Below are positions 33,726 to 64,000 of a stretch of DNA of 64,000 nt, piece by piece; within the stretch, counting starts at the first letter, position 1; every line of letters begins with the position of its first letter. The stretch comes from Patescibacteria group bacterium (lineage in GTDB: Bacteria; Patescibacteriota; Patescibacteriia; Patescibacteriales; UBA12465). The notes under the pieces were generated by a model that saw only the letters and a list, made by a program, of their open reading frames with translations, made no database searches and had not been told where the DNA came from. The stretch lies in assembly GCA_041651355.1 (NCBI GenBank), contig JBAZJK010000001.1, positions 37,883-101,882 of the forward strand. The letters are read 5' to 3'. The translations under genes were made by a program, and so were the position numbers.

Positions 33726-34127
33726 ATGAAATTATTCATCTACACTGATGGTGGCGCCCGTGGCAATCCTGGTCCGGCGGGCATCGGAGCCGTGATTTAC
33801 GATGAAGACAAAAAAGTCATAGCCGAGGTGTCGGAATATTTGGGGGTAGCAACTAATAATCAGGCGGAGTATAAAGCCGTGATTGCCGCCTTAAAGAAAG
33901 CCAAAGAGATGGGTGGCACAGAGCTATCTTTTTATTTAGATAGCGAGTTAGCTGTGAAGCAGCTAAACCGGGAGTATAAAGTAAAAAACAAAGACTTGGC
34001 GCCTTTGTTTTTAGAGGTATATAATTTAAGCTTAAGTTTTAAGAAAGTCTCTTTTTCTCATATCCGCCGCGAGTTCAATCAGGTGGCAGATAGATTGGCT
34101 AATGAGGCGATGGATAGGGGAAATTAA
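33726..34127 (+). CDS. rnhA: Ribonuclease HI
   Basis: TDGGARGNPGPAGIGAVI, NNQAEYKAVIAAL and NQVADRLAN cover the DEDD catalytic residues. Confidence 0.85.
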   Translation: MKLFIYTDGGARGNPGPAGIGAVIYDEDKKVIAEVSEYLGVATNNQAEYKAVIAALKKAKEMGGTELSFYLDSELAVKQLNREYKVKNKDLAPLFLEVYNLSLSFKKVSFSHIRREFNQVADRLANEAMDRGN

Positions 34128-35284
34128 TATCTTTTAGTATATAATCTGCCATCAGAATGACTGTTGGCATATTTTTTTACTGTTTCAAAACTCATTGAGC
34201 TACTAACACAGTTGCCTGGTTCTTTTCCTGAACCTCCGTGGCAGTCCCCGAATAATCCTTTGCCCATATAGATAATAACATGCCCACTGCCTTTTTTATT
34301 ATTTTTTGGTGCCCAACCAACCATATCTCCTGGTTTGAGGCTTTCTAGCTTTTGGTCCCAAACTTGTTGGTCTTTAAATATGTCAGCGCTTCGGCCACCG
34401 GTATCTCGACCAGTGGCACATTTAAAAACAAAGGAAGAAAAGCTGGAACAATCTAAGTAAACGAAATTTCCTGGCGCTGATTGTCCTCGCAATTTCTGGC
34501 TGTAAGTAACTTTACCTTTTGCCTTTTTTACAATCTGCTCCACTGAATCCTGATTACAGTTTACACCCAACACAGAGGCTATACCGGTTACATCAAGTGA
34601 TATTCCTGGCGACTCGTTATCGCCTTCAAGCTCTATTTCCTCTATGTATCCCAGAGACAGGGCTTTGAATTTTGTCAGGTCAGGATTGATCTGGTAGAGG
34701 ATTACATAAGAACAGAGAAGAAGCACCAAGCCGCTAATACTGCCGATGATTAGTTCTTTGGATTGGGTAATTTTGGAAGCGTCGCCACCAGAAACCAGCC
34801 AGATTATACCCCCAATCATCAAAACTATGACGGCTGCAATGCCGGCGATGCCGACGGCGTATTTATAAACACCCCCGATATATTCACCTATCCAATTAAC
34901 CTTGCAGACCGGAGGCGTGCCGGTACATTTGGCTTCGGAGAAATTAGCCATGCCCGGTATTTTTATGGCTAATTCCGGGATTTTGAATTTAGGCTGTTCT
35001 GCTTCTGGCGCCGTCGCATTATTTGTTAGTTGGCCATTGGTAAGAGAAAAATTTCCGATATCACAGCAACATTCTGCTTTTATTAATCCGCATGAACCTT
35101 TGCCGGTGCAAGCGCCAAGGCCGCCAACAGTTCCTCCTAAACTATAGCAAAAATCAGCTGTTGTTTTATGTATTGAGAGATCATTGCATTGCCAGCTACA
35201 GGTTGCAGCTGAAGCAACACTAGATAGGGATAAGCCCAATATGCAGAAAAATAGTATCATTATTGTCTTTTTACCATTTTTCAT
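34124..35284 (-). CDS. Exported Cys-rich protein with a VirB2/TrbC-pilin-like two-helix membrane module fused to a C-terminal NlpC/P60 peptidoglycan endopeptidase domain
   Basis: Four parts are visible: a signal peptide (ILFFCILGLSLSSVASA), a Cys-rich N-domain (CSWQC...ECCCD), a hydrophobic hairpin (AVGIAGIAAVIVLMIGGIIWLVSGGDASK...GSISGLVLLLCSYVILYQINPDL), and NlpC/P60 motifs YLDCSSFSSFVF (catalytic Cys) and GHVIIYMG (His). The start overlaps the porB stop by 4 nt. Confidence 0.65.
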   Translation of the reverse strand: MKNGKKTIMILFFCILGLSLSSVASAATCSWQCNDLSIHKTTADFCYSLGGTVGGLGACTGKGSCGLIKAECCCDIGNFSLTNGQLTNNATAPEAEQPKFKIPELAIKIPGMANFSEAKCTGTPPVCKVNWIGEYIGGVYKYAVGIAGIAAVIVLMIGGIIWLVSGGDASKITQSKELIIGSISGLVLLLCSYVILYQINPDLTKFKALSLGYIEEIELEGDNESPGISLDVTGIASVLGVNCNQDSVEQIVKKAKGKVTYSQKLRGQSAPGNFVYLDCSSFSSFVFKCATGRDTGGRSADIFKDQQVWDQKLESLKPGDMVGWAPKNNKKGSGHVIIYMGKGLFGDCHGGSGKEPGNCVSSSMSFETVKKYANSHSDGRLYTKRY

Positions 35285-36153
35285 ATTTTGTATTTCCTGA
35301 TATTCTCATCCGCTAGGCTTTGGATATATTTTATATCATCCGGTTTTAAATGTTTAAATCTTCCTTGGGCTTTTAAATATTCTTCTACGGGAATAGGCTT
35401 AGATTCTTTCTTGATGCTAGAAGAGCTTAATTTCCCCTCCGTATACTCTAGTAAAGGATAGAGGGCGGTCTGAACGGCTAGTTTACCCATTTTGACTGCC
35501 TCATCATTGTTTATCTTCCAACCGGGCATACAAGGAGAAAGAATCTGGATATAGCTCGGGCCTTGGATGGCCAGGGCTTTTTTAATTTTGTTAGTAATAT
35601 CATCGGGAAAGCCAGCCGTGCTTTGGGCTACATAATTTAGACCATGAGCCAAGGCAACCGCGAGCATGTCTTTTTTTCTTTGCGCTGAACCGATGGATTT
35701 TAGACCATCAGGAGTGGTGGTAGTGCTAGCTCCATAGGGAGTGGCTCCGGAAGCCTGGATGCCGGTGTTGGAATAGGCTTCGGTATCATAACAAATGTAT
35801 AGGATATTTTCTCCTCTTTCCCACATACCGCTGATTAAGCCGAAGCCAATATCAAAAGTGCCGCCATCACCAGCTTGTACGACTACTTTTGTTTTATTAT
35901 CTCCCTTCTTATTCAAAGCGGCCAAGATGCCGGAAGCGACCGAAGCAGCATTCTCGAATAAAGAGTGAATCCAGGGTAGGCCCCAGGCGCTTTGCGGATA
36001 TGAGGTTGTAGTTACTTCAAGACAACCAGTAGCATTGGCGATAATAACATCTTTATTTAAAGCTCTCATGACCGCCTGAGCGGCGACCATCTGGCCGCAA
36101 CCCGCGCAGGCATTATGGCCAGGCGAGAGGAAGGAATTATTTTTATTTAACAT
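35281..36153 (-). CDS. porB: Pyruvate:ferredoxin (2-oxoacid) oxidoreductase, beta (TPP-binding) subunit
   Basis: CAGCGQ, GDGGTFDIGFG (TPP/Mg motif) and SPCMPGW. Confidence 0.9.
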   Translation of the reverse strand: MLNKNNSFLSPGHNACAGCGQMVAAQAVMRALNKDVIIANATGCLEVTTTSYPQSAWGLPWIHSLFENAASVASGILAALNKKGDNKTKVVVQAGDGGTFDIGFGLISGMWERGENILYICYDTEAYSNTGIQASGATPYGASTTTTPDGLKSIGSAQRKKDMLAVALAHGLNYVAQSTAGFPDDITNKIKKALAIQGPSYIQILSPCMPGWKINNDEAVKMGKLAVQTALYPLLEYTEGKLSSSSIKKESKPIPVEEYLKAQGRFKHLKPDDIKYIQSLADENIRKYKI

Positions 36154-36174
36154 ATATCTCTGTCCCCTAGTTTT

Positions 36175-37287
36175 TTATTGGCAAATATTTGGTCCATTTA
36201 ATTTAAGCTTACAGTCGCCATGACTTTCAGAACCGCATTTACAAGTGAGGTTATTATCAGAATTACAGCATTGGTAGTTTTCCCAGTTTGCGCTGCCACA
36301 CTCAGAACCAAAAAGTTTGCAACGTTGACAGGTTTTATTTAGGCAATAACCCGCGATATTTCTGAATAAGATTTGTTCGCCGTTAACATTTGCAAACTCA
36401 TCAAAAGCACAAGAAGATTCATCTGCTAGCTGAGCGCAAGCCTCAGCCGCGCTGACAATAGTTTCTGGTGGTTCCGGTTGGGCGGCCGCAGTTTCAGCTT
36501 CGGCGCATTTATAAGCGCTGTTTTCTGGTACTTTAACGTATTGAGTTCCGCAGGCAATGCAGTCGCCACCGTGAGGTGCACCAGTATTCCCCGAGCCCAT
36601 TGAACTCCCCATATAGGTTGCCCATTTGCAATAGACGTATGAATAATCTGCTGGAGACTGCTGGCAACAACAAATCTGTTGTCCGGGAACTTCAGCTTTT
36701 TTAACCGAACATTTAGCTAGGCCAGCCTCTATTTTATTCATGCATTTATTATCTTTCCAGGCACACATAGCTATCGCGTTACAGGTTGAAGAGGCCACGG
36801 CGTCTTCGCATGATACGGCCGAATCTATGTTAAGGTTCTTTTCTTTAATCTGGGTGACATTTTGTATCTTGAATTTAAGAAGATCGGGATTAATCGTATT
36901 AAGTAGTATCCAAGAGCAGAGCAGTAAGGCCAGGCCAGTGATGCTGCCACCTATCAGGTCTTTGGCTTGCCCGACTTTACCGGGGTTGCCTCCGGATGTC
37001 AGCCAAATGATGCCGGCAATCATCAAGACGATTACCGCTACGATACCGACAATCGCTAAAGCATAGTTATAAAAAGCGGCCACATATTCTCCTATGTACA
37101 CAGTGCTACTTGTAGTCATGGATCTTGGCGCGTCATTTTGGAAATTGGAGCCAGGGATGCTAATAGAGGTTTTGAGTTCTATCGGATCGGCTGCGCTTGC
37201 TGGGTTGGGAGAAATTAATAAATTAAAGGTTCCTATAATTACAGTAAATAGAACCAAAAGAAAAACAATTGTTGTTTTTTTCTTCAT
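36175..37287 (-). CDS. Exported protein with a VirB2/TrbC-pilin-like two-helix module and a large Cys-rich C-terminal ectodomain
   Basis: A signal/anchor is followed by the module YIGEYVAAFYNYALAIVGIVAVIVLMIAGIIWLTSGGNPGK...GSITGLALLLCSWILLNTINPDLLKF, which is paralogous to the module in the 34124..35284 product. About 230 aa with many Cys residues follow (ICCCQQ, CIACG, CQRCKLFGSECG, CKCGSESHGDC). Confidence 0.55.
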   Translation of the reverse strand: MKKKTTIVFLLVLFTVIIGTFNLLISPNPASAADPIELKTSISIPGSNFQNDAPRSMTTSSTVYIGEYVAAFYNYALAIVGIVAVIVLMIAGIIWLTSGGNPGKVGQAKDLIGGSITGLALLLCSWILLNTINPDLLKFKIQNVTQIKEKNLNIDSAVSCEDAVASSTCNAIAMCAWKDNKCMNKIEAGLAKCSVKKAEVPGQQICCCQQSPADYSYVYCKWATYMGSSMGSGNTGAPHGGDCIACGTQYVKVPENSAYKCAEAETAAAQPEPPETIVSAAEACAQLADESSCAFDEFANVNGEQILFRNIAGYCLNKTCQRCKLFGSECGSANWENYQCCNSDNNLTCKCGSESHGDCKLKLNGPNICQ

Positions 37288-37298
37288 ATATTAAATAA

Positions 37299-38465
37299 TT
37301 ATCCCCAAAACTTCACTTCCTTTGCTTTCTTTTTGGAAAACTTAACTATGTCTTTAATAATCTTCTGAGTGACATCACGGCCGCCGAGGCCGACAATATG
37401 GTTAGTGATGTTTAGCTTATGCGTTCCTAACCCAGCCTTGATATCGCTATACAAAGGCCCCATTTCCCCTAAGCTAATCGCTTTTTCTATGACAGCTAAA
37501 TTTTTGGCTTTAGCTAGGATCTTATTTATTTCCTCTTTCGGGAAGGGCCGGTAGCTTTTTATTTTTAATAATCCGACATTTTTCTCTTTTTTAATGGCTT
37601 CTTGGATGGTGCCGGTAACTGAACCCATGGCGGCAATTACCAGATCGGGGGCGTTGGGGCCGTAGTATTCAACTAAGCCATTGTCAATTTGCGGTTTGAG
37701 AGCGCTTAATTCTTTTCTTTGGCTAAGCTTTTTGTATAAAACATACTCCTGTTTTATTATACTTTGGCTAGCTAGCAAATCCTGATGCAGTTTCTGTCTG
37801 GTCTCTTGGTAATATTCTGGCGTAAAGAAGGCGCCTAGGGTGATAGGTAATCTAGGATCAAGGTAGCTGCCCAGGGTAGGGTTGTAGTCTGGCAGATATC
37901 TTCTGATTAGTTTGCTATCGGGAATGATGACATTCTCATAAGAATGGGTGATGATAAAGCCATCGACATTAACCATCACTGGCAGGTTCAGTTTTTCTGC
38001 CAGCTTATAGGCGATGACGTGAAGATCGACTGCTTCTTGGTGGTTAGCGGCAAAGAGAAGGATCCAGCCGGCGTCGCGGATAGCCATAACGTCGCTTTGG
38101 TCATTAAAGATATTAATCGGAGCGGAAACGGCGCGGTTGGCACAGGTCATAACTATCGGCAAACGCAGGCCGGCAATATTAAAAACCACCTCAGTCATTA
38201 GCAACAGGCCCTGGGAGCTAGTCGCGCTATAGACGCGGCTACCGGTAGCACTAGCCCCGAGGATAATCGAGGCGGCTGCAAATTCACTTTCAGCTCGGAC
38301 ATATTCATAATTAGCCTGTCCTTCAGCTTTATATTTAGCCAACGTTTCTACGATATGGGTCTGGGGTGTAATCGGATAGGCAGAAATTACGCTTGGTTCC
38401 AAATTTTTTATCGTCTGAGCGATGGCTTGCGAGCCTTCGAGTAATTGAGTTTTGTTTAGAGACAT
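37299..38465 (-). CDS. porA: Pyruvate:ferredoxin oxidoreductase, alpha subunit
   Basis: MSLNKTQLLEGSQAIAQ...AYPITPQT...EFAAASIILGASATGSRVYSATSSQGL. The track ORF extends to 38633, overlapping porD in another frame; the internal ATG at 38465 gives the canonical N-terminus. Confidence 0.9.
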   Translation of the reverse strand: MSLNKTQLLEGSQAIAQTIKNLEPSVISAYPITPQTHIVETLAKYKAEGQANYEYVRAESEFAAASIILGASATGSRVYSATSSQGLLLMTEVVFNIAGLRLPIVMTCANRAVSAPINIFNDQSDVMAIRDAGWILLFAANHQEAVDLHVIAYKLAEKLNLPVMVNVDGFIITHSYENVIIPDSKLIRRYLPDYNPTLGSYLDPRLPITLGAFFTPEYYQETRQKLHQDLLASQSIIKQEYVLYKKLSQRKELSALKPQIDNGLVEYYGPNAPDLVIAAMGSVTGTIQEAIKKEKNVGLLKIKSYRPFPKEEINKILAKAKNLAVIEKAISLGEMGPLYSDIKAGLGTHKLNITNHIVGLGGRDVTQKIIKDIVKFSKKKAKEVKFWG

Positions 38466-38469
38466 AATT

Positions 38470-38751
38470 TTAATAGTCTTTTTCCATACTGATAGCCTTG
38501 ACCGGGCATTCAGCCGCGCAGAGGGCACAGCCTTTACAATAATCGTAATCAGTAATCGGGATGTTCTTATCGTTTCTTTTAACCATTGTGATACAAGCTT
38601 CAGGGCAGACCTTAGAACACAAAGAACAGCCAATACATTTCTTGTAATCCGTCTGCGGCCGAAAACTGCGCCAGGGGCCGGTTTTATTATCCAGGGATGA
38701 ATTCGCTTTGACGGCGGGAATTTTGTTTATTTTTTTGGTTTTGGTCTTCAT
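38470..38751 (-). CDS. porD: Pyruvate:ferredoxin oxidoreductase, delta (2x[4Fe-4S] ferredoxin) subunit
   Basis: CIGCSLCSKVCP and CKGCALCAAECP. Confidence 0.9.
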   Translation of the reverse strand: MKTKTKKINKIPAVKANSSLDNKTGPWRSFRPQTDYKKCIGCSLCSKVCPEACITMVKRNDKNIPITDYDYCKGCALCAAECPVKAISMEKDY

Positions 38752-39320
38752 ATGGAAAAAGCTTTAAGGGCGGCTTGGATATTCTGGCTGACAACTGCCT
38801 GGCCTTTGCCGCTGAATTTATTTTCCATAGCTTTTTTGATCGAGGCTAGGCTAATCAGCTGGCTATAGCGAGCCAAGGCTCCTAACAGGGGAGCGTTAGC
38901 CAGATTTTTCTTGAATATTTCTATAGCGATAGCGGTGGCCGGAGTGATAAATATGTTTTTTTCCGTAATCAACCCTTTGTTTTTGCTAGATTTTTTAATA
39001 ATTTGGTATATTTCTTTAGCGCTTAGGGAGCTGTTAACTATTATTTTAGTATTTTTCTTAGCTCCAACTAGAACGTCTACGCTGTTAAGCAGGCTGTCAT
39101 CTTGGATAATCAGGATATCCGGTTCGTAAATCTGTTCCCGATTGTTTATCGGTTTATCATCCAGGCGGACGAAGGATTGGATAGGGGCGCCACTCCTTTC
39201 TACACCGAAAAGAGGGAAGGCTTGGGCATAGCGTCCTTCATTAAAAGCGGCTAAAGCAATCAGCTCGGCCGCCGTGACTACGCCCTGGCCGCCGCGGCCA
39301 TGGATGCGGATTTGGATCAT
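38748..39320 (-). CDS. porG: Pyruvate:ferredoxin oxidoreductase, gamma subunit
   Basis: IRIHGRGGQGVVTAAELIALAA. The 190-aa length fits, and there is a 4-nt overlap with porD. Confidence 0.9.
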   Translation of the reverse strand: MIQIRIHGRGGQGVVTAAELIALAAFNEGRYAQAFPLFGVERSGAPIQSFVRLDDKPINNREQIYEPDILIIQDDSLLNSVDVLVGAKKNTKIIVNSSLSAKEIYQIIKKSSKNKGLITEKNIFITPATAIAIEIFKKNLANAPLLGALARYSQLISLASIKKAMENKFSGKGQAVVSQNIQAALKAFSI

Positions 39321-39325
39321 AATTT

Positions 39326-40075
39326 TTACTGGTTTAGATATTTTTCTATTAAGGCGTTAAACTGTTCTTTTTCCATATGTCCGGTGACGCGATGGCGGCC
39401 GATGAACCAAGTCGGTGTTTTTTCTACTCCCAAAGCCTCACCATCTTCCAGATTAGCCCGGATATTGTCTAAATAGGCTTTGTCGTTGAGACAAGCGCTA
39501 AAATCGTCAGTGTTAAGTTTGAGGTCTAGGGCTAGGGACCTGAGATTGATGTCTAAATCGGCTTCGCTAGCCTTGAGACTGTCTTGGTTGGCAAATAGAG
39601 CGTCATGCATCTCCCAAAATTTTCCTTGGGCGCCAGCACACCAGGCTGCTTGCGATAAATCGATCGATTTTTCGCTGATGACCGGGAAATCGCGGAAGAT
39701 AATCTTGACTTGGTCCTTATATTTTTCTCCGGCTTGCCTGATTACTTCTGATAGTTGTTTGCAATAAGGGCAAGCGAAGTCAGAGAATTCAACAATAATC
39801 AGCTTAGGGCTTCCGGCACCTAAGTAATAATTATTTGCGCCATATAAGGTGGCCTCGGCTTGTTTTTGTAAGATTAAATTCTGGCTGTCAGCTCTTTCTT
39901 GGTTGATTCGTTTAGCTTCGTTTATGACATACCAAAAAGACAGGGCCGCAATTATCATAATCAACGCCAAAATCCCGATTAGTACCTTTCCCCAGGGTTT
40001 TTTATACCAAGGCCTCAGGGTTTTTTGGTGGCGAGATTTCATCTCCGCCAGCTTGATTCTATCTTCTAAGCTCAT
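39326..40075 (-). CDS. Membrane-anchored DsbA-family thiol:disulfide oxidoreductase
   Basis: An N-terminal TM helix (VLIGILALIMIIAALSFWYVI) and a thioredoxin-fold CxxC active site (FSDFACPYCKQ). The gene ends 5 nt upstream of porG. Confidence 0.8.
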   Translation of the reverse strand: MSLEDRIKLAEMKSRHQKTLRPWYKKPWGKVLIGILALIMIIAALSFWYVINEAKRINQERADSQNLILQKQAEATLYGANNYYLGAGSPKLIIVEFSDFACPYCKQLSEVIRQAGEKYKDQVKIIFRDFPVISEKSIDLSQAAWCAGAQGKFWEMHDALFANQDSLKASEADLDINLRSLALDLKLNTDDFSACLNDKAYLDNIRANLEDGEALGVEKTPTWFIGRHRVTGHMEKEQFNALIEKYLNQ

Positions 40076-45169: not shown

Positions 45170-45184
45170 AATCTTTATAAAAAC

Positions 45185-55204: not shown

Positions 55205-55852
55205 ATGTCCATTGACGAACAACTTTTAGCCGCTTCTAACGAGTCGGAATCCGCTGGTCAGCAAGATACATCTAGCGATCCAGGCGCTTTTCGTGAAGAT
55301 AAAAGAAATTCAACTCCTAACGGACCAGATGGTAACACGGGTGATAGCGGCCAGAGTTTTAGGATGGCTAAGCAAGCCGCTAAGAACCAGGCGAAAGATC
55401 AGGATGAGTCCAGTGGCCTTAAAGGGGCAGCCATGGATAAGGCAACCGCTCCTGCTAGAAAAGCGACTGGTTCTTGCTTGAAACAAGCTTGGTTGAACGC
55501 TCCGGAAACCTTTGGCTGTACTCTGGCCTGGGTTAATATCCATGTTTTTTTGCGCCAGGTATTGGGTAAGAAATTATTCGGCCCCTTGGGCTCAGAATGG
55601 TTGCCTGGGGAAACGCCGTTTGCGGGAGCTGATAAAACCGGGGCGAGTAAAAGCTTAGAAAAAGGGATGCAATTAGGGGAGGGGTGCTTGTTGGTAATAC
55701 TTGATCTTGGCTGCCTAATAATACTCATAGTGACGATCGGAGGCATAGCCGCTGTCCTTTATCTTTTAACCCACCCGGGAGAGGTTATAGGTGCAGTTCT
55801 AAATGCGGTTTGGGATCAGGTTACTTCTTGGGTGTCCGGTATATTTTCATAG
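55205..55852 (+). CDS. Hypothetical protein with a disordered polar N-terminal half and a C-terminal TM helix; first gene of the T4SS-like cluster
   Basis: An ORF with a low-complexity N-terminus and the hydrophobic segment CLLVILDLGCLIILIVTIGGIAAVLYLL. I recognise no family. Confidence 0.4.
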   Translation: MSIDEQLLAASNESESAGQQDTSSDPGAFREDKRNSTPNGPDGNTGDSGQSFRMAKQAAKNQAKDQDESSGLKGAAMDKATAPARKATGSCLKQAWLNAPETFGCTLAWVNIHVFLRQVLGKKLFGPLGSEWLPGETPFAGADKTGASKSLEKGMQLGEGCLLVILDLGCLIILIVTIGGIAAVLYLLTHPGEVIGAVLNAVWDQVTSWVSGIFS

Positions 55853-55864
55853 TTTCAAAACCAA

Positions 55865-58426
55865 ATGCGTGGGAAAATAAAATTTAACAAAAAGTATTTC
55901 TTTTTAACCCTGCTTCTAGTGGTAAGCAGTTTTTTTGTAGCTTCAAATGCTTGGGCACAAATATCTTTCGGTGAACTGATCACCCAACTCATTGGCTGGG
56001 TGGCCCAGGTAATAGTTAGCGCCTTGGGTTTGATATTAATTTTGTTGATGAGAGTTTTGATTTATATCGCCCAATATAATGATTTTATTGGTTCTCAAGC
56101 AGTATCTAATGGCTGGATTATAGTCAGGGATCTGTGCAATATGTTTTTTGTGGTAATATTGCTGGCCATATCATTTGCCACTATTTTACATATTGAACAA
56201 TACAGTTACAAGAAATGGTTGCCGAAGTTAGTAATGATGGCGATTTTAATAAATTTTTCTAAAACGATTTGCGGACTTATTATTGATTTCGGCCAAGTTA
56301 TCATGTTGACCTTTGTCAATGCTTTCAAGGATATTGGCGGCGGTAATTTGGCTGATATGTTAGGGATTACAGAGTGGCTCAAGATTAAAGAGAGTGGAGA
56401 TGAAAATGCGGTAAGCAATTGGAATGTTATCGGCGCTTATATTTTAGCAGTCATATATGTTTTTATTGCTGTCGGCGTGATTGCTACCATGATTGCGATG
56501 TTGATCATGCGGATTATGATGTTGTGGGTCTATGTCGTCTTATCTCCGGCCGCTTATCTTTTAGCCTCTTTTCCTGGCGGACAAAAATATTCCTCCCAAT
56601 GGTGGAGCGAATTTACTAAAAACGTTATTATCGGTCCGGTGTTGGCCTTTTTTATTTGGTTATCGTTTGTGACTGTTGTCCCTGGTTCTACGGGTGCGAC
56701 TATTTTAAGTATGGAGAACGTGCCGTCTCAAGAGGCCGCTAATTTAGGAGAATCTCAAGCGGTCGGTGCCGGTACCGCCGATTTCATGGTTAAATTCATC
56801 ATTTCGATTGCAATGTTGATTGGTGGTCTCAAGATATCTCAAGAAATTGGCGGGGCGGCTGGCAGTATTGCCGGGAAAGGAATGAATAATATACAGAAAT
56901 ATGGCTTAGGAACCGCCGCGGCCGTTACCGGCTATCGTTACGCAGCGGGCGTGATGCAGAATTATCAAAGTATCCGTAAATCTAGGCGTGAAGAAAAATA
57001 TGCCTCCGCCGGAAAGAGCTTGGTCAGCGCGGTCGATACAACTAAAGCCGCGGCCGGCGCTCCAGTTAAAGGAGCGGCTAAAGTAGTTGGCGGCTGGGGC
57101 AAAAAAGCGAAAACTTGGACGGCAGCGAAAATGAACAATGAAACGGTTAGTGATTATAAGGAGAGAAAAGAACAGGAAACTAAGAAGAAAAGAGAAGAGA
57201 AGGCTAACAAGAAATATGACAAGGCAGCCAAAAGAGAAGCCTATAACTCTGGTAAATATACTGATAAAAGCGGCAAAGAGTACGATCTTGATACTAGTAC
57301 TAATACCTATAAAGATAAGGCTGGCAATGAAGCTAAGGATACCAGTGGCAAGGTTGTTAAAAAAATGTCTGATACAACGGCTAATTATTATAATAGCGTT
57401 GAAGACAGCATGACAAAATCAAGGGCTTTTAGGAACCAGATTCAGGAAGAAAGAGCGGGTAAGAAACAGAAGATATTAGAAGACGCTGGCACCTCAAGTA
57501 CCGACCTGAAGAGGGTAATGAATGATTCCAGCGCTAGTAGTGATAAGCGTTTAGCCGCTGCGATCAGCTTAGCTGTTAAGGAGGGCTTTAAGACTAAAGA
57601 TCATACCAAGGGTCGTCAAGAAGTGTCTAACGCCAAGGCAGTTATCGGAGATAACAAGGTCTTGTTAAAGAAATTTAATGACACCGTTAATAAGAAATTC
57701 GCTCACTTGAATTATAATTTAGATAATGCTGACGGAACGATAAATGTAGATGAAAAAGAAAGATTTAAGCAGGCGATGGATAATGGTTTGTTTGATGGCT
57801 ATAGTCAGGATAGTACAGCTTATAGCGAGAATGTTCTAAAAACATTAGAGGAGTATTCGGGCATAGATTTCCCTGAAAAAATTAGCAAGGTGGCGGGAAA
57901 TAGCAAACAAGCCAGAGATACTATCGGCGACAGCATGGCTAAATTAAAGGATCAAGATTTAGCTAGTGGAGGGACAATGATTAACGCCGATGGAGACCTG
58001 AATAAATACGCGAAGTTGACGGCTAGAATTAGTGGAAATGTTGAAGCAGCTTTTAGTCAGACTAGTACGTCTGGTGTTAAGACATTTAATAAAGATGCTG
58101 CTACTAAATATTTCACCGACGCTAAAGCTAGTTGGATGAATAGCTTTGATGCCAGTCAATTAAAAATAAAAACCGACGCCTCTGGTGCAACCAATGCTGC
58201 TTTCGTGAAAGATTTACAAGAAGCCATAGCTAACGGAATCCAGGTTAACACCTTAGTTTCGATGCAAAGAGCTGACCAATCTCCTGATTTAATCAGAAGA
58301 ATATTAGGAATTGTTGAACAAGAAGCATTTAAAGCATCCGCTTCGCCTGAATTAATGAAAAAATATGATGATATTGATGATAACAATGTGTTAAAAAATA
58401 TCCCTCGCACAACCCCGCCCGTTTAA
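55865..58426 (+). CDS. Polytopic membrane protein, VirB6/TrbL-like (putative T4SS channel component), with a long Lys-rich C-terminal domain
   Basis: A signal peptide plus at least 6 TM segments within the first ~330 aa (for example WVAQVIVSALGLILILLM, MFFVVILLAISFATIL, VIGAYILAVIYVFIAVGVIATMIAMLIM), then about 500 hydrophilic residues. The call rests on architecture and context only. Confidence 0.45.
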   Translation: MRGKIKFNKKYFFLTLLLVVSSFFVASNAWAQISFGELITQLIGWVAQVIVSALGLILILLMRVLIYIAQYNDFIGSQAVSNGWIIVRDLCNMFFVVILLAISFATILHIEQYSYKKWLPKLVMMAILINFSKTICGLIIDFGQVIMLTFVNAFKDIGGGNLADMLGITEWLKIKESGDENAVSNWNVIGAYILAVIYVFIAVGVIATMIAMLIMRIMMLWVYVVLSPAAYLLASFPGGQKYSSQWWSEFTKNVIIGPVLAFFIWLSFVTVVPGSTGATILSMENVPSQEAANLGESQAVGAGTADFMVKFIISIAMLIGGLKISQEIGGAAGSIAGKGMNNIQKYGLGTAAAVTGYRYAAGVMQNYQSIRKSRREEKYASAGKSLVSAVDTTKAAAGAPVKGAAKVVGGWGKKAKTWTAAKMNNETVSDYKERKEQETKKKREEKANKKYDKAAKREAYNSGKYTDKSGKEYDLDTSTNTYKDKAGNEAKDTSGKVVKKMSDTTANYYNSVEDSMTKSRAFRNQIQEERAGKKQKILEDAGTSSTDLKRVMNDSSASSDKRLAAAISLAVKEGFKTKDHTKGRQEVSNAKAVIGDNKVLLKKFNDTVNKKFAHLNYNLDNADGTINVDEKERFKQAMDNGLFDGYSQDSTAYSENVLKTLEEYSGIDFPEKISKVAGNSKQARDTIGDSMAKLKDQDLASGGTMINADGDLNKYAKLTARISGNVEAAFSQTSTSGVKTFNKDAATKYFTDAKASWMNSFDASQLKIKTDASGATNAAFVKDLQEAIANGIQVNTLVSMQRADQSPDLIRRILGIVEQEAFKASASPELMKKYDDIDDNNVLKNIPRTTPPV

Positions 58427-58436
58427 TTGATTATTT

Positions 58437-59630
58437 ATGGATTATATTAATGAAATAAAAAAATTACCTCAAGAAATCCAAGATATTTTAATATCCCCTT
58501 TTGGTGCAAAAATAAATAGGGAAATGATTAATAAGTATAACTTAGATAAAAAGTCGGCCGGCGTGATAGTGGATATAGTTAATGACATCTATTTAAAGAA
58601 ACTCAACCTAGTAAACCTGAAGGAAAAGATTATCAATATTATCAGTTTGCCACCAGACCGGGTCCAGTCATTGTGCCTCGATTTAGCCGGCCTAAAACTA
58701 CTAATTGCCGATGATTATTTTAAGGGGATAGTTAAAGATTTTATCTTAGCTAATCGCGGAGATTTGGCTACTTACCAAGCAAAAGCTCAAGAGTGGAAAG
58801 AGGCTATCAAACGTGAACAGGAAATTTATATCAGCGAGACGGCAGAGCCAAAATATGAGTCGAAATTAGTTAATCTCAACGATGACGAAGAAGACCCAGC
58901 TTTAATCAATCAAGAAAAAATAGACGCCGTATCTTTATTCAAAGAGGATGTGATTAATGCTTTAAAATTGGGGCCGGACAGTTCAGAGATGACCGCAATC
59001 TATAACGAATTTTTGATAGATCTGATCAAAGACGATGAAAATTTTAGAAAATCTTTAGAGACGTCCCTTTATAATAACCAAGAGTTGGTAGTCCCAGAAA
59101 AGATTATTGTGAACGGAAGCGAAGTTAAAGCCTCGGTGGCTAATTGGATAAAAGATTTTATCAGTCAAAATGGTAGCGAGATGTTTAATAACGTTGTCTT
59201 GGTAAAATATCTATCCGATAATCCTAATGTAAAAAAATTAAAAGATGCGGACAGGGAAATAGTAAAAAAGGTATTGAAACTATATCGTAATTTAGTATTT
59301 TTCCCCGATAGCATGGAGAATGTCCCCCTAGAAGAATGGGAAATATTTCCAGTTGATCAAACTCAAGCGCTTGCAACAATCGGTCCTAGAAAAGGAGGCA
59401 AGATACTTAATGTCTTAGATGAAAATAACCAGGAAGCGGTAGAAGCTAAAATAGCTGAGCCAGAAATTGATAATCAAGTTAGCCAGTCCATAGATCCCGC
59501 TCCCGTACAAAAAGAACCCAGCGAGTTGGATCAGTTGGAGAGTTTATTACAAAAATACTCCCCCGGCAGTTTTGAATACAAGACTATCCAGCAGGAGATC
59601 AAGCGTTTGAAGAGATTGGGGCAAAAATAA
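58437..59630 (+). CDS. Hypothetical protein (N-terminal domain paralogous to the 59779 product)
   Basis: A 397-aa ORF. The N-terminus is MDYINEIKKLPQEIQDILISPFGAKINREMINKYNLD... Confidence 0.5.
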   Translation: MDYINEIKKLPQEIQDILISPFGAKINREMINKYNLDKKSAGVIVDIVNDIYLKKLNLVNLKEKIINIISLPPDRVQSLCLDLAGLKLLIADDYFKGIVKDFILANRGDLATYQAKAQEWKEAIKREQEIYISETAEPKYESKLVNLNDDEEDPALINQEKIDAVSLFKEDVINALKLGPDSSEMTAIYNEFLIDLIKDDENFRKSLETSLYNNQELVVPEKIIVNGSEVKASVANWIKDFISQNGSEMFNNVVLVKYLSDNPNVKKLKDADREIVKKVLKLYRNLVFFPDSMENVPLEEWEIFPVDQTQALATIGPRKGGKILNVLDENNQEAVEAKIAEPEIDNQVSQSIDPAPVQKEPSELDQLESLLQKYSPGSFEYKTIQQEIKRLKRLGQK

Positions 59631-59654
59631 TTAGCAGCTTAATATCATTTAGAA

Positions 59655-59679
59655 ACGAGACCACGAGGTCTCGTTTTTT
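59655..59679 (+). terminator. Rho-independent terminator inside the T4SS-like cluster
   Basis: ACGAGACC acga GGTCTCGT followed by ttttt. Confidence 0.75.
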
Positions 59680-59778
59680 GCTAAACTTTAGCTTCTTCGT
59701 AAAGAGCTAGGCTCTCTTTCCTCTTTTTGGCAAAATGTGCTAAAATAAAACCAGAATAAATTATTTTTTGCCGGTTTC

Positions 59779-61101
59779 ATGTTCGATTATTTGCAAAAAT
59801 TTAACGCCCTGCCTAAGGATTTGCGCGATAAGATTTCTTCCCCTGCCGTTATGGCCGCGATTTCCGCTTTAGAAAGCAAATATGGGGTTGATTTGGCTAT
59901 GACCGTGATGCGGGTGATGATAAAAACCCTTAGTTTGGAGAATTTGCCTTTCCATCTAGCTAGTGAATTCGGCCTTAATCAAACCCAGGCAGAAAGCTTG
60001 AACCGTGATCTTAAAGACCAGGTTTTTTTAGTTGTTGCTACCTATTTAGGCCTCAATTCAGATTCATCAGCTCTTGATTTAAACCAAAACTTAGAGCGGA
60101 TCGTTAAAGAGTCAGGAATCAGGTTCACGAGTACCGATGCTTTGGCTCGCTTCAAACAAATCCTTAACACTTATCTGCGTGGTGTCAGAACCAAGATTGA
60201 TACTCGTAATTCTTTAGCCAAGAGCGTTGTCTCTGGCGGCCTTAATTTGGACACTTTTACCATTGATAAGGTTTTTAAGATTTGCGACGAGCTAACCAAA
60301 GCCTTGCCGGCTCCGGAAATCGTCAAGCCGTCTGCCTCGCCAGCTTTAGATAGGTTGATCGTGGCTGATGCCGTTAAGGATAAAACAGCCATCACCCATG
60401 AATCAGAATATAATCTTAAAGACCTGGCCGCTAAAGGAAAATTAAAACCGTTAGGCAATTTGGATACTAGTCACGAGCTTCCTTCAGGGGAAATGAAAGA
60501 CCTGCCGGCTCCGCCTAGTATTGATGCCGAAGCCGCCGCGATTGCCGATTTAGCTTCAGCTAAGATCACTGAAGCCTTATCCAAGATCAACCCGGTGCCT
60601 AGCACTCCATCTCCGGAACTTGCTCCTAAGGTAGAGGCTCCAGCTCCGGCAGCCACGCTGAGACAGGAAGCAGCCCCGAAACCATTAGTTAAGTCGCCCC
60701 TGCCGGCGGCGGCTAATTTGCGCCCGGCGGCTGATCCCTCCCGGCCCAAAGTCGCCGATATCCGACCGATGCCCAAGATCATGGGTCCGATTGAAGAATT
60801 ACAATTTTTGGATCTAGTTAATTTCCGTCGCTTGGGCGTGAATCCCAGTGATATCACTAGCAAGATTTATACCAAGATCAGATTGCTGGAAAAGACTGGC
60901 TATGACCAGATGATTCAAGGGGTAGTGGCTTGGCGGAAGGGTATTATTAATCGTGTCTATTTGAAGATGTGCCAAGAGGCTTTCGCTAAAGGAATGCCAC
61001 TTAAGGAGATTATTGCCAAGCGGCAGTCCGAAAACCGTGAATATTTGACTTGGGATGAAATCAACGCGATCGTCGACCTTAATAAAAAGCTCATGTTCTA
61101 A
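59779..61101 (+). CDS. Hypothetical protein with a Pro/Ala-rich linker (N-terminal domain paralogous to the 58437 product)
   Basis: A 440-aa ORF. The N-terminus is MFDYLQKFNALPKDLRDKISSPAVMAAISALESKYGVD..., with a central region of the form PAPPSIDAEAAA...APAPAATLRQEAAPKP. Confidence 0.5.
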   Translation: MFDYLQKFNALPKDLRDKISSPAVMAAISALESKYGVDLAMTVMRVMIKTLSLENLPFHLASEFGLNQTQAESLNRDLKDQVFLVVATYLGLNSDSSALDLNQNLERIVKESGIRFTSTDALARFKQILNTYLRGVRTKIDTRNSLAKSVVSGGLNLDTFTIDKVFKICDELTKALPAPEIVKPSASPALDRLIVADAVKDKTAITHESEYNLKDLAAKGKLKPLGNLDTSHELPSGEMKDLPAPPSIDAEAAAIADLASAKITEALSKINPVPSTPSPELAPKVEAPAPAATLRQEAAPKPLVKSPLPAAANLRPAADPSRPKVADIRPMPKIMGPIEELQFLDLVNFRRLGVNPSDITSKIYTKIRLLEKTGYDQMIQGVVAWRKGIINRVYLKMCQEAFAKGMPLKEIIAKRQSENREYLTWDEINAIVDLNKKLMF

Positions 61102-61104
61102 TAT

Positions 61105-61575
61105 ATGCAGCAATTTACCGTTCCTCAATTCATTGACGTGGAAAGCAAGATTATCGGTCCAATCACTACCCGGCAATTTTTAATCTTTCTGGCCACCGCG
61201 GCTTTAATCGGAATCTTCTATAAATTATTCGATTTTGCCCTTTTCTTGGCAACCGGTCTGCCAGTCCTAGGTTTGGCTATCCTTTTTGCCTTCGTGAAGG
61301 TTAATGGCCAGCCTTTCCATCTTTTTGTTTTAAGCTTGGTAAAGACCTTGCGGCGGCCCAACACGAGGATTTGGAATAAGCAGACGACCGTTCAAGAGGT
61401 TCCAGAATTCACCCCGATCATCAAGAATGAATACCAGGCTCAATTCAAGCCGGCCTTTAAGAGCTCTCATTTAGCCGATTTATCTTTAGTGGTAGACACC
61501 CAGGGCAGATATAAAGGGCAAGAAAATGCGCCTAATCAAAGCTTGGCCGAGAAAAAAGATTTTAATAATAATTAA
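61105..61575 (+). CDS. PrgI-family (VirB3-like) small membrane protein
   Basis: The N-terminus FTVPQFIDVESKIIGPITTRQFLIFLATAALIG is followed by a second TM helix (FLATGLPVLGLAILFAFV). This matches my recollection of the PrgI family signature. Confidence 0.7.
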   Translation: MQQFTVPQFIDVESKIIGPITTRQFLIFLATAALIGIFYKLFDFALFLATGLPVLGLAILFAFVKVNGQPFHLFVLSLVKTLRRPNTRIWNKQTTVQEVPEFTPIIKNEYQAQFKPAFKSSHLADLSLVVDTQGRYKGQENAPNQSLAEKKDFNNN

Positions 61576-61584
61576 GTTTAAAAT

Positions 61585-62259
61585 ATGGCTGATAAGGCAG
61601 CTAGTAAAATTAGCGCTTCCACCCAAGATTTCCTAGATATCGCTGAAATAAAGGAGAACACCGTGGTGATGAAAGATGGCACCTTGCGGGCGGTCTTATT
61701 GGCGTCCAGCATCAATTTTGCTTTAAAAAGCGAAGATGAACAGAATGCGGTAGTTGATTCCTATATCCGTTTCCTGAATAACCTATCTTTTACCCTGCAA
61801 ATCGTCATTCAATCACGCGAGTTAGACATTGATAATTATCTTGAGTATCTCAGAACCAAAGAGAAGGAGCAGACTAACAAGCTGCTCAAGCTCCAAACCG
61901 GGGAATACATCGAATATATCAAGGAATTAACTTCTTTGGGCAAGATCATGAATAAGCGTTTTTACATTATCGTCCCCTATAACGCCTTGTCTGATAAGAA
62001 GAAGAATTTTATGGCCCAGTTAGGCGAAGCCTTGAAGCCAGCTACTTCCATCAAATTAAAGGAGAAGACTTTCTTGCGCTATCAGGAGATGCTTAATCGG
62101 CGGATAGATAGCGTGGCCGGCGGTTTAGAGGCCATGGGTATTAATGTGATTAGATTAGATACTCAGAGTCTGATTGAATTATATTACCGCACTTATAACC
62201 CGGAGACCGCTAAGAACCAAGCTTTGGGCGAAATCGACAAGATGCGCGTCGAGTCTTAA
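61585..62259 (+). CDS. Stand-alone protein resembling the N-terminal domain of Gram-positive-type VirB4 ATPases
   Basis: STQDFLDIAEIKENTVVMKDGTLRAVLLASSINFALKSEDEQNAVVDSYIRFLNNLSFTLQIVIQS resembles the N-terminal pattern I recall from Tn916 Orf16/TraE-type proteins (..DINYQLA..D..AIF..fLN.fd..i..Q). It has no Walker motifs. Confidence 0.4.
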   Translation: MADKAASKISASTQDFLDIAEIKENTVVMKDGTLRAVLLASSINFALKSEDEQNAVVDSYIRFLNNLSFTLQIVIQSRELDIDNYLEYLRTKEKEQTNKLLKLQTGEYIEYIKELTSLGKIMNKRFYIIVPYNALSDKKKNFMAQLGEALKPATSIKLKEKTFLRYQEMLNRRIDSVAGGLEAMGINVIRLDTQSLIELYYRTYNPETAKNQALGEIDKMRVES

Positions 62260-62277
62260 TTAATCCAAGGGAAAATT

Positions 62278-64000
62278 ATGATAAATTTCAAAAAATCAGA
62301 TTCTCCAAATAACCGCTTGACCCTAAATAGTAGTTTAGGTGCTCGGCCGGATAGTCCGGCGCCAGTGGAAGCTAACCCGGAGCTAACGCGGGAGATTATT
62401 GAGGAGGAAAAAGCTTTCCGGCGAGGGGTTATTTCTGTCCGGGACATCATTTCTCCGGCGAGCATGAAAGTCGAGCCGACGCTTTTGCGTTTAGGAGACA
62501 AATTCGTCCGGACGATCTTTATCATCAATTATCCTCGTTATATCAGTGTCGGTTGGTTCGCTCCGGTCATTAATCTTAATTTGACCTTCGATATCTCCAT
62601 GTTTTTCTATCCTGTTTCCAGCGCAATTATTCTGAAACAGCTGAAGAACAAAGTCGGTATCTTAGAGGCACAGATTGCTGGCGATGCCGAGAAGGGCGCT
62701 GCTCGTGATCCTTTGCGGGAAACTGCCTTGCGCGATATTGAATCCTTGCGCGACGCCTTGACCCAGGGAACGGAAAAGTTTTTCCAATTCGCCCTGTATG
62801 TTACTTTATATAGCGATAGTACGGAGGAATTAGATCGTATGTCCGATCAGGTTGAAGATATTTTCGGTTCACGACTAGTTTTCTCCCGGCGAGTTTATTT
62901 CCAAGCCGAACAGGGCTTTAATTCTACTTTACCCTTGGGAAACGACGAGATGTCCATTACTTTTAACATGAACTCTTCGCCGGTCGCTTCATCTTTCCCC
63001 TTCATTTCTAGCGAGCTAACCAGCGATCGCGGCATCTTGTATGGTATCAATCGCCACAATAACAGCTTGATTCTATTCGACCGTTTTAGCCTACAGAACG
63101 CTAATTCAGTCGTTTTTGCCACCTCGGGTGCCGGCAAGAGCTATGCTATCAAATTGGAAGTTCTCCGTTCTTTGATGCTCGGAACCGACATCATTATCAT
63201 CGATCCTGAACATGAGTATAAATATCTATCTGAAGCGGTCGGCGGCACCTATATCAACATTTCGCTGTCTTCGGAGAATAAGATCAATCCTTTTGATTTG
63301 CCACGCTCGATCGGAGCTGAATCAAAGCCGAAAGATATCATCCGGAGCGCTGTCATAACCCTAAAAGGTTTGGTTAGACTTATGATCGGCAACCTTAGCT
63401 ATGATGAAGATTCTATCGTTGACCGCGCTTTGCTGGAAACCTATGCCAAGAAAGATATTACGCCAGATTCAGATTTATCTAAGATTGAACCGCCGGTAAT
63501 GTCGGATTTCGAACAGGTTTTAGAGGGCATGGAAGGTGGCGCTGATTTAGCCTTACGCCTCAAGAAATATACCGAAGGTACTTTTTCCGGCTTGTTGAAT
63601 AATTTTACTAACGTCGAGATGAATAATCAATTGGTCTGTTTCTCGGTGCGTGATTTGGAAGATGAGCTCCGGCCTCTGGCTATATATACGATTATCAATT
63701 ATATCTGGAATATTGTCCGTAGCGAGACTAAGAAGCGCATCTTGGTAATTGATGAGGCTTGGTGGATGATGCAGCATGAAGATAGCGCTAAGTTCGTCTT
63801 CGCCTTAGTCAAGCGTTGCCGCAAATATTATTTGGGCGTGACCACGATTACTCAGGACGTTAATGACTTCTTAACCTCGCCCTATGGCCAAGCCATCGTG
63901 ACCAACTCTTCTTTGCAGATTCTGCTCAAACAATCGCCGGCCGCCATCGACCTAGTCAAGAAAACTTTCATCCTGACGGAAGGCGAGAAATATCTGCTAC
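62278..64000 (+). CDS. virB4: Type IV secretion VirB4/TraE/PrgJ-family ATPase; its 3' end runs off the window
   Basis: Not in the ORF track because it has no stop in the window. ATG 62278 stays open to 64000. Walker A is VVFATSGAGKSYAIK and Walker B is ILVIDEAWWMM, followed by TTITQDVNDF. Confidence 0.85.
   Translation, partial: MINFKKSDSPNNRLTLNSSLGARPDSPAPVEANPELTREIIEEEKAFRRGVISVRDIISPASMKVEPTLLRLGDKFVRTIFIINYPRYISVGWFAPVINLNLTFDISMFFYPVSSAIILKQLKNKVGILEAQIAGDAEKGAARDPLRETALRDIESLRDALTQGTEKFFQFALYVTLYSDSTEELDRMSDQVEDIFGSRLVFSRRVYFQAEQGFNSTLPLGNDEMSITFNMNSSPVASSFPFISSELTSDRGILYGINRHNNSLILFDRFSLQNANSVVFATSGAGKSYAIKLEVLRSLMLGTDIIIIDPEHEYKYLSEAVGGTYINISLSSENKINPFDLPRSIGAESKPKDIIRSAVITLKGLVRLMIGNLSYDEDSIVDRALLETYAKKDITPDSDLSKIEPPVMSDFEQVLEGMEGGADLALRLKKYTEGTFSGLLNNFTNVEMNNQLVCFSVRDLEDELRPLAIYTIINYIWNIVRSETKKRILVIDEAWWMMQHEDSAKFVFALVKRCRKYYLGVTTITQDVNDFLTSPYGQAIVTNSSLQILLKQSPAAIDLVKKTFILTEGEKYLL

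Follow-up and report, generated by a model that had tools for sequence, protein, structure and literature searches.

Patescibacteria carry type IV secretion systems (T4SSs) of an MPF-FATA-like kind (PMC12102498, PMC10633639, PMC12857230), and in the one genetically tractable Patescibacterium the T4SS and its VirB2-like pilins are essential, with a function that has been called completely unknown (PMC11665869, PMC12857230). In Candidatus Southlakia epibionticum the T4SS, the pilin array and virB4-adjacent peptidase and lysozyme homologues were all found to be essential (PMC12102498, PMC10633639, PMC12857230). Pilins lie beside virB4 or other T4SS genes in 1135 of 1948 assemblies, VirB1 is absent from most Patescibacteria that have VirB2-like pilins, and in a survey of 3,035 genomes pilus biogenesis there seemed to manage without a VirB1-type hydrolase (PMC12102498). 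The subject of this study is a gene, here termed X, in a stretch of 64,000 nucleotides from a Patescibacteria group bacterium (contig JBAZJK010000001.1, positions 37,883 to 101,882; the whole stretch is referred to as the window). An earlier reading of the window, the original prediction, had described X as a fusion of a T4SS-pilin-like membrane hairpin with an NlpC/P60 cell-wall hydrolase.

By family the nearest described proteins are the VirB2-like pilins of Patescibacteria (PF18895), such as those of the Ca. S. epibionticum array and the arrays of Quinonero-Coronel et al. (2025), with which X shares the hairpin family and a Sec-type signal peptide. X differs from them in being three times longer (386 amino acids (aa) against 76-146 aa), in carrying a Cys-rich head and an enzymatic tail, and in lying away from the T4SS locus in an operon with genes for DsbA and for pyruvate:ferredoxin oxidoreductase (POR). 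In its possible working X would seem closest to the VirB1-like proteins of Gram-positive bacteria (PrgK of pCF10, TraG of pIP501, TcpG of pCW3 and the Tn916 Orf14/CD419 class), which, as is predicted for X, are membrane-tethered extracytoplasmic hydrolases of the NlpC/P60-CHAP type in monoderms with an MPF-FATA-like T4SS, and among which differing hydrolase chemistries are interchangeable or combined, as they are at the X slot. These proteins, however, are encoded in the T4SS cluster and have an ordinary N-terminal transmembrane (TM) segment, whereas X has a pilin hairpin as its anchor, lies ~20 kb away and has a catalytic module that varies by species.

Conceptually, and by analogy, X would stand near the 'evolved' components of type VI secretion systems (T6SSs) and the modular type IV pilins. 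Evolved VgrG, PAAR and Hcp proteins carry C-terminal effector domains, e.g. the peptidoglycan-degrading domain of V. cholerae VgrG-3. Like X they have an enzyme domain on a structural subunit, with a C-terminal domain that varies and a structural part that is conserved, but they belong to another machine and have another fold; their wall-degrading effectors come with immunity proteins, none of which is evident for X, and delivery of X by an apparatus is a proposal. In Streptococcus sanguinis, also a monoderm, the modular type IV pilins PilB (vWA module) and PilC (lectin module; PMC8179133, PMC9934059) are minor subunits in which a module has been grafted on to a pilin scaffold. The likeness is one of concept only: a class III signal peptide, a single N-terminal helix and adhesive modules characterise the type IV pilins, whereas X has an AXA site, a two-helix hairpin and an enzyme. 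A possible counterpart is KKT24894.1 (GCA_001000035.1), an entry classed as VirB2 with the Pfam domain PF00877 in Table S3 of PMC12102498, which, as X does, appears to fuse a pilin with NlpC/P60 in another Patescibacterium. It differs from X in lying near virB4 (gene numbers 645 for KKT24894.1 and 643 for VirB4) and in having been detected with the diderm T_virB2 profile instead of PF18895. This one row of a supplementary table was the sole trace of pilin-hydrolase fusions in the literature searched, in which no discussion of them was found.

It is firmly supported that X is a Sec-exported, pilin-family membrane protein with an intact NlpC/P60 endopeptidase domain, which is predicted to be exposed outside, and that the locus of X is a polymorphic one for modular pilins, of which X represents one allele. 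All of the component families are known; what is new is how they are combined, how the cassette behaves and where in the genome the gene lies. The most informative feature is the swappable hydrolase cassette at a conserved locus, accompanied by a second pilin-like gene, here termed H2.

Gene X, which encodes a modular pilin-family protein with matches to PF18895 and PF00877, occupies 34124..35284 on the minus strand, exactly the reading frame claimed originally, with an ATG start and 386 aa plus the stop codon. The sequence AGGAA lies 12 nt 5' of the ATG, and the ATG shares 4 nt with the stop of the POR beta gene on its 5' side. Public gene callers start X at Met9, which gives 378 aa; Met1 is preferred because the N-terminus MKxGKK is kept in orthologs. 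There were 81 homologs of X and wherever these were named the annotation was of Patescibacteria type. All of the elements claimed for the protein, i.e. the signal peptide, the head with its CCC triplet, the two hydrophobic helices and the NlpC/P60 motifs, were found. The signal peptide (aa 1-26; 35207..35284, minus strand), recognised by direct reading and hydropathy, has an MKNGKK n-region with K2, K5 and K6, a hydrophobic core at residues 8-20 and a signal-peptidase-I type site, VASA|A, at 26/27; the AF2 model has a helix at 4-19. Direct reading of this region revealed neither a lipobox nor a class III prepilin motif.

The Cys-rich head, or ectodomain (aa 27-125; 34910..35206, minus strand), has 10 Cys residues including C72-C73-C74, a CCC motif that 74 of 84 orthologs share. 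The head diverges fast, with 26-44% identity to orthologs, and has no Pfam match. The heads of a few orthologs weakly match the Pfam family Nodulin_late (NCR-type Cys-rich peptides), with a best E=7e-5, and the pattern CxxxC ... GxC ... CxC is loosely like that of Cys-stabilised defensin-like peptides, the AF2 confidence being moderate. After the head come the membrane hairpin (aa 126-205) and a linker (aa 206-229; 34598..34669, minus strand), in which the AF2 pLDDT falls below 50 at residues 213-218 and in which a recombination junction lies at ~aa 214-217.

The C-terminal NlpC/P60 (C40) peptidoglycan endopeptidase domain (aa 230-386; 34127..34597, minus strand) was identified by PF00877, by profile matches to solved structures, by AF2 and by Foldseek. 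The Pfam profile hidden Markov model (HMM) NLPC_P60 matched aa 276-345 with E=1.3e-5 and 25.6 bits against a cut-off of 23, and a profile of the family matched Acd24020 of C. difficile (7cfl) with 6.7e-7 and CwlO with 3.6e-6 in the PDB. In the AF2 model the domain has a pLDDT of ~90, with a helix at 279-291 and a strand at 335-341, and is a papain-like alpha+beta fold. Foldseek paired it with MepS, SagA, Acd24020, CI_01448 and others at probability 1.00, the target TM-score being 0.54-0.67 to single-domain NlpC/P60 structures. The structural model thus agrees with the assignment made originally.

Catalytic residues were compared in an alignment of 39 NlpC-type homologs, in which D278-C279-S280 and G334-H335 were invariant and F345-G346-D347-C348-H349-G350-G351 was kept in >=90% of the sequences. 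Cys279 (codon 34448..34450, minus strand; motif DCSSF) aligned with the catalytic Cys of 7cfl and CwlO, and His335 (codon 34280..34282, minus strand; motif GHVIIYMG) with the catalytic His. Candidates for the third residue of the triad are D347 and H349 (GDCHGG; 34238..34246, minus strand), both of them within the motif kept in >=90% of sequences, and the HMM alignment sets the His of 7cfl opposite D347. The Cys279/His335 dyad therefore aligns with solved enzymes, and the failed alignment of catalytic residues that was to count against the original prediction was not observed; judged by its residues the NlpC/P60 enzyme of X looks active. A domain that is catalytically dead and only binds peptidoglycan, as RipD does, would make X an adhesin. 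The non-catalytic RipD is indeed also among the Foldseek matches, but the dyad aligns with that of active enzymes and D347 and H349 are kept almost as strictly; an adhesin of this kind is highly improbable because Cys279 and His335 are invariant.

The pilin-family membrane hairpin (34670..34909, minus strand) consists of a helix at 131-164, the loop SGGDASKITQSKE, a helix at 169-199 and an NPDL cap. Kyte-Doolittle hydropathy peaks at 145-161 and 185-191, and the two AF2 helices, with SGGDASKITQSKE between them, have a pLDDT of 79-89. The description of this part as T4SS-pilin-like was upheld by the Pfam family T4SS_pilin (PF18895), which matched aa 129-196 with E=2.6e-8 and 34.2 bits against a cut-off of 26.6, while the hairpin piece alone gave E=1.4e-9 and 38.3 bits. 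Across 80 sequences the mean column identity of the hairpin is 62%, and ~20 invariant or near-invariant positions are spread over both helices and the loop. Relative to the window protein, identity amounts to 50-89% in the hairpin core and to 26-44% in the head; the corresponding range for POR beta in the same genomes is 62-85%. This degree of conservation exceeds what a membrane anchor needs and suggests that the hairpin has specific partners.

A profile built from the 80 hairpins retrieved 782 proteins, of which the best 120 were all PF18895 proteins of Patescibacteria, 76-146 aa in length and in some cases named 'pilin'. The hairpin is 29-53% identical to these short Patescibacteria pilins, and several of the short pilins, retrieved with E values of 1e-14 to 1e-9, match TrbC/VirB2 (PF04956) over nearly the whole of its profile, two of them above the cut-off of 27.9 bits (P0194 with 31.6 and P0177 with 28.1) and others just under it. 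In addition, 59 of the 80 hairpins weakly match NF045849, the Mbov_0395 pilin-like conjugal transfer protein of integrative and conjugative elements of Mycoplasma; the best E value was 1.6e-7, with every score under the curated cut-off. On sequence grounds the hairpin is clearly homologous to ordinary Patescibacteria pilins. It follows that tallies of 'pilins' based on PF18895 also take in large enzyme-bearing proteins.

It had also been proposed that both soluble domains lie outside the cell, and this agrees with what was found, as an N-terminal signal, cleaved or uncleaved, followed by two TM helices (an even number) predicts that the head and the NlpC/P60 domain are both outside; a cytoplasmic location of the enzyme was not what the topology pointed to. 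The 10 Cys residues of the head, the invariant C243 and C289 of the tail and the DsbA-like gene that heads the cluster agree with such a topology, and X probably contains disulfide bonds.

Comparison with related loci made it apparent that the hydrolase is swapped as a cassette on the conserved hairpin and that X is one allele of a polymorphic locus. The cassette (34125..34637, minus strand) comprises the last two bases of the Glu216 codon, aa 217-386 and the first two bases of the stop codon. When the window was compared by blastn with one related locus (L007), the DNA was collinear from 40199 down to 34638 with flanks 76-78% identical, was without similarity from 34637 to 34125 and resumed exactly at 34124. 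The protein of that locus (P0018) is 75% identical by BLASTP over aa 1-222 and then has VanY/Peptidase_M15 in place of NlpC/P60. In a second locus (L019) the identity of the hairpin is 76% at the DNA level and 89% at the protein level, and the DNA similarity ends at 34644; its head (opposite 35276-34907) and its tail (opposite 34643-34129), the latter a 3D domain, are both unrelated to those of the window. X and the convergent RNase H gene (33726-34127) overlap at their stop codons by 4 nt, 34124-34127, and the 3' junction of the cassette thus coincides exactly with the end of the gene. The G+C content of the cassette is 40.7%, against 43.7% in the rest of the gene and 43-44% in the flanks, which is no strong anomaly.

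The related loci numbered 88, from 80 species-level genomes and 8 metagenome contigs; they were chosen as the closest relatives of X and describe this orthologous group, not all PF18895 fusions. Tails were tallied in 83 slot proteins from the 80 species-level genomes. The commonest was 3D (34 proteins), followed by VanY type a (18), NlpC/P60 (13, with the window protein extra) and VanY/M15 type b (12), and there were two tails of unknown family, one C39_2 tail and three singletons. When the window protein is included, the 84 slot proteins have at least nine unrelated tail families joined at ~aa 214-217, and the tail types are scattered across the POR beta tree. A wider metagenome set added Amidase_2, SLT, SLT_3 and Amidase_5 tails. 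The exchangeable modules that could be identified are all wall-cleaving or of peptidase type and differ in their predicted bond specificities; this variety is, we infer, the pattern of hole-making or lytic enzymes rather than of growth autolysins. A second and occasionally a third pilin-hydrolase gene was observed right after X in some relatives (L009 10872-12389, L032 11022-12047, L045, L057 and L068). These tandem fusions are mostly of differing hydrolase type, e.g. NlpC/P60 then 3D in L009, and in pairing domain types they resemble the two-domain VirB1-like proteins of Gram-positive bacteria.

A conserved N-terminal module with C-terminal catalytic cassettes that are swapped at a sharp junction is also known from polymorphic toxins and phage endolysins. 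Unlike these, X is without an immunity gene and without a phage or mobile-element context: no immunity gene was evident beside it, the downstream position being occupied by the convergent RNase H gene, with RecJ, in 83 of the 88 loci. H2 was considered as a type-specific immunity protein or inhibitor and was rejected, as H2 tails belong to one family (60 of 74 loci) across hydrolase types. A phage, plasmid or other mobile origin of the cassette or hairpin was likewise rejected after tblastn searches of phage and plasmid collections gave no match; one weak match to a viral contig (27% identity) was to the NlpC/P60 domain alone.

The T4SS core of the window lies at 55205..64000 on the plus strand and encodes a 215-aa protein, a VirB6-like protein of 853 aa (55865-58426), proteins of 397 and 440 aa, PrgI/VirB3 (61105-61575), a TraC-like protein (61585-62259) and VirB4 (from 62260). 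In the full contig (L089, 1-13711) VirB4 has 634 aa and is followed by a 203-aa protein. No PF18895 pilin, no wall hydrolase recognisable by Pfam and no recognisable coupling protein was found in this core. X is not within the T4SS locus and lies ~20 kb from it and 27 kb from virB4, in the DsbA/POR operon. The enzyme had originally been placed at or in the appendage itself, but no result obtained here put X in one. The suggestion that the fusion supplies the hydrolase needed by a monoderm T4SS was thus sustained in part: it is plausible in that the core has no recognisable hydrolase or pilin and that VirB1 is mostly absent in the literature (PMC12102498), while the lack of linkage to the T4SS locus tells against it.

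The reading tentatively favoured here, with a confidence that stops a little short of even, is that X may take the place of VirB1, as a modular subunit of the pilin family through which an enzyme that opens the wall reaches the T4SS. X would be exported by Sec and cleaved by signal peptidase I, and the Cys-rich parts would be oxidised by the adjacent DsbA. The hairpin would then cross the cytoplasmic membrane twice, its short loop on the inner side and its two ends on the outer, one end bearing the fast-evolving Cys-rich head and the other the NlpC/P60 endopeptidase on a flexible linker of ~25 residues. By analogy with CwlO and MepS the enzyme would cut stem peptides or cross-links of peptidoglycan. 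The hairpin, which is conserved like a core enzyme, may dock with the partners of ordinary pilins, i.e. H2-type subunits and the VirB6/VirB4 machine, and docking would focus cleavage where the T4SS crosses the wall of the producer, giving the VirB1/PrgK-type function that is absent from the T4SS locus. The enzymatic module (NlpC/P60, VanY/M15, 3D or others) could be exchanged because any cut that opens peptidoglycan would serve. Such a reading needs no assumption beyond hairpin-mediated targeting, and it would explain both the absent hydrolase and the interchangeability of glycan- and peptide-cutting modules. X would then offer a concrete and testable answer to the question of where the wall-hydrolase activity of the Patescibacteria T4SS is, and suggests an undescribed way for Patescibacteria to open the cell wall.

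A number of observations weigh against this reading. A wall opener leaves unexplained both the repeated turnover of the cassette and the lack of linkage to the T4SS locus, which extends to the relatives, as VirB4, PrgI or VirB6 was within 10 kb of X in none of the 88 loci. The operon partners, DsbA and the central-metabolism enzyme POR, suggest constitutive expression and not co-regulation with a T4SS. The scattered exchange of cassettes and the fast-evolving head are more like adaptation to an external and variable target than like the opening of the bacterium's own wall. The TrbC/VirB2 family, for which a search had originally been proposed, gave no direct match in the hairpin with PF04956 even at E<=10, the hairpin profile recovered no solved pilin from PDB sequences but only chance FXYD matches, and no pilin was among the Foldseek matches of the X and H2 models; the putative link between hairpin and VirB2 is transitive because direct matches to PF04956 or a solved pilin are lacking. 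The positive-inside rule was uninformative, with a net charge of 0 to +1 on all three flanks of the hairpin, and the case for the topology is therefore made by the signal peptide, by the presence of TM helices in an even number, by the content of Cys and by where the substrate is located. Finally, no T4SS pilus of Patescibacteria has been reported and the 'pilin' label of PF18895 is an inference (PMC12857230).

Some of these observations would be accommodated if X had nothing to do with a T4SS. The PF18895 hairpin would then be a two-pass anchor, perhaps dimerising with H2, for a housekeeping autolysin that acts on the bacterium's own wall in growth, division or turnover, and DsbA would be co-expressed for the sake of disulfides. 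X is never near virB4 and has a constant chromosomal neighbourhood of housekeeping genes (LeuRS, ExoIII, RNase H, RecJ, LepA and MurJ) inside the POR operon; the short linker would keep the enzyme within reach of the own wall, and MepS and CwlO, the solved enzymes most closely related to it, act as autolysins in growth. However, a growth endopeptidase should not be replaceable by 3D or VanY/M15, yet these are the commonest tails (34 and 30 of the 83). Nor would a mere anchor hold ~20 invariant or near-invariant residues over its helices and loop, and the hairpin is homologous to short pilins, many of which are placed beside virB4 in the literature (PMC12102498). A surface autolysin independent of the T4SS is accordingly regarded as unlikely.

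The cassette polymorphism would be explained by the other alternative, in which X would be extracted into a VirB2-type pilus or its tip as a minor subunit and would bind and drill the wall of a host or prey, the cassette being matched to host wall chemistry. In solved conjugative pili (the F-pilus and the T-pilus) the pilin has its termini on the outside of the filament, and the lumen is lined by the loop between the helices. The predicted topology of X, in which the hairpin has both termini facing outward, is the arrangement of these solved pilins. At least nine unrelated tails at an orthologous slot, with sharp junctions and a rapidly diverging head, are a signature of polymorphic effectors, and the conservation of the hairpin is as strong as would be expected of a polymerising module. 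Those Patescibacteria that have been cultivated live as epibionts, S. epibionticum cannot do without its T4SS and pilin array, and the hydrolases that predators of the Candidate Phyla Radiation secrete are thought to attack the host wall. Set against this is an extra and unobserved step, the polymerisation of a pilin loaded with globular parts of ~100 aa and ~170 aa. An immunity gene is absent, the tail of H2 does not change with the type of hydrolase, and X is unlinked to the T4SS locus. A weapon displayed on a pilus is for these reasons judged doubtful. Were the subunit to leave the membrane, X would suggest how an ultra-small epibiont could breach the wall of its host.

A broader form of this idea, which is speculative and improbable as it stands, is that Patescibacteria build VirB2-type structures from 'evolved pilins', whose outward ends would bear exchangeable enzymes (NlpC/P60, VanY/M15, 3D, amidase, SLT or C39-like) and a variable Cys-rich binding head, so that the filament or its tip would bind and drill the host wall. 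If true, evolved pilins would be the T4SS counterpart of evolved VgrG, PAAR and Hcp, with a cassette polymorphism that tracks host wall chemistry; they would, in addition, reveal where the missing VirB1 function lies and hint at what the essential and unexplained T4SS of Patescibacteria does.

The genes of the cluster follow one another on the minus strand in the order DsbA, POR gamma, POR delta, POR alpha, H2, POR beta and X, and run against the convergent RNase H. The first is a DsbA-like thioredoxin (39326..40075, minus strand; Pfam Thioredoxin_4/DSBA), which presumably serves the oxidative folding of X and H2, both of them Cys-rich members of the pilin family. POR gamma (38748-39320), delta (38470-38751) and alpha (37299 to ~38465/38633), all on the minus strand, were recognised by the Pfam families POR, POR_N and PFOR_II, the Fer4 delta subunit being called in L001, and POR beta, the TPP-binding subunit between H2 and X (35281..36153, minus strand), by TPP_enzyme_C. 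Scans for a promoter and terminator of the operon gave counts at the level of shuffled sequence. The operon of the four-subunit POR is thus interrupted by two pilin-family genes (alpha / H2 / beta / X; 35281-39320, minus strand), an arrangement seen in at least 66 species-level genomes.

The partner gene H2 (36175..37287, minus strand) encodes a pilin-family protein of 370 aa, in which PF18895 matches with E=1.4e-8 and the hairpin occupies aa 58-138 (36874-37116). A C-terminal Cys-rich domain of ~230 aa follows, and the whole protein has 25 Cys residues including a CCC; the tails of orthologous H2 proteins are ~10% Cys. The H2 tail has no Pfam match and Foldseek found no fold match for the H2 model, in which only the hairpin is confident (mean pLDDT 67, with 112 residues below 50, mostly in the tail). 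An hhalign probability of 0.3% led to rejection of the idea that one and the same Cys-rich domain forms the head of X and the tail of H2. A search with the hairpin HMM over the window, including the T4SS locus, revealed no further PF18895 protein beyond X and H2.

Gene order is kept in relatives at 63%, 47% and 40% protein identity. POR beta is directly upstream of X in 78 of the 88 loci and DsbA is present in 70, and most of the loci without a given neighbour are truncated contigs. H2 is located upstream of X in nearly all related loci. In lineages that lack POR (L090, and also L011, L017, L024 and L057) DsbA, H2 and X are contiguous, which argues that the stable unit is DsbA with the two Cys-rich pilin-family proteins. 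This compact conserved unit of DsbA, the second pilin (H2) and the pilin-hydrolase (X) can be traced in metagenomes and expressed for biochemistry. The window is chromosomal Patescibacterium DNA, with genes for RpoB/C, FtsK, LeuRS, LepA, RecJ, MurJ and KsgA around the locus, and related contigs are labelled Patescibacteria group or Candidatus Falkowbacteria. Many records of metagenome-assembled genomes with the locus (L010, L011, L013 and others) are titled 'uncultured Gammaproteobacteria bacterium' (binchicken/SRP co-assemblies) and single ones Bacillota, Planctomycetota or Saccharimonadales; on loci of Patescibacteria type these titles look like placeholder or erroneous labels.

Several other features of the window were observed. 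An ADP-forming acetyl-CoA synthetase (23686-25758, plus strand), with CoA_binding, Succ_CoA_lig and ATP-grasp_5 domains, would together with POR give a fermentation route from pyruvate to acetate and ATP. In the T4SS region the stretch around 58-60 kb has a lower G+C content, of 37%. A protein of 2813 aa (44531-53626, plus strand), encoded immediately upstream of the T4SS locus, has weak matches only, to DUF4141 at its N-terminus and to CBM_4_9; it may act at the cell surface or in adhesion, and the gene before it encodes a 212-aa protein with a bacterial TSP3 repeat. A 668-aa protein (10669-12675, plus strand) has an Ig_7 domain and a Por_Secre_tail, the C-terminal sorting domain of the type IX secretion system (PF18962, E=1.3e-10), a sorting signal of Bacteroidota type that is unexpected in a Patescibacteria genome.

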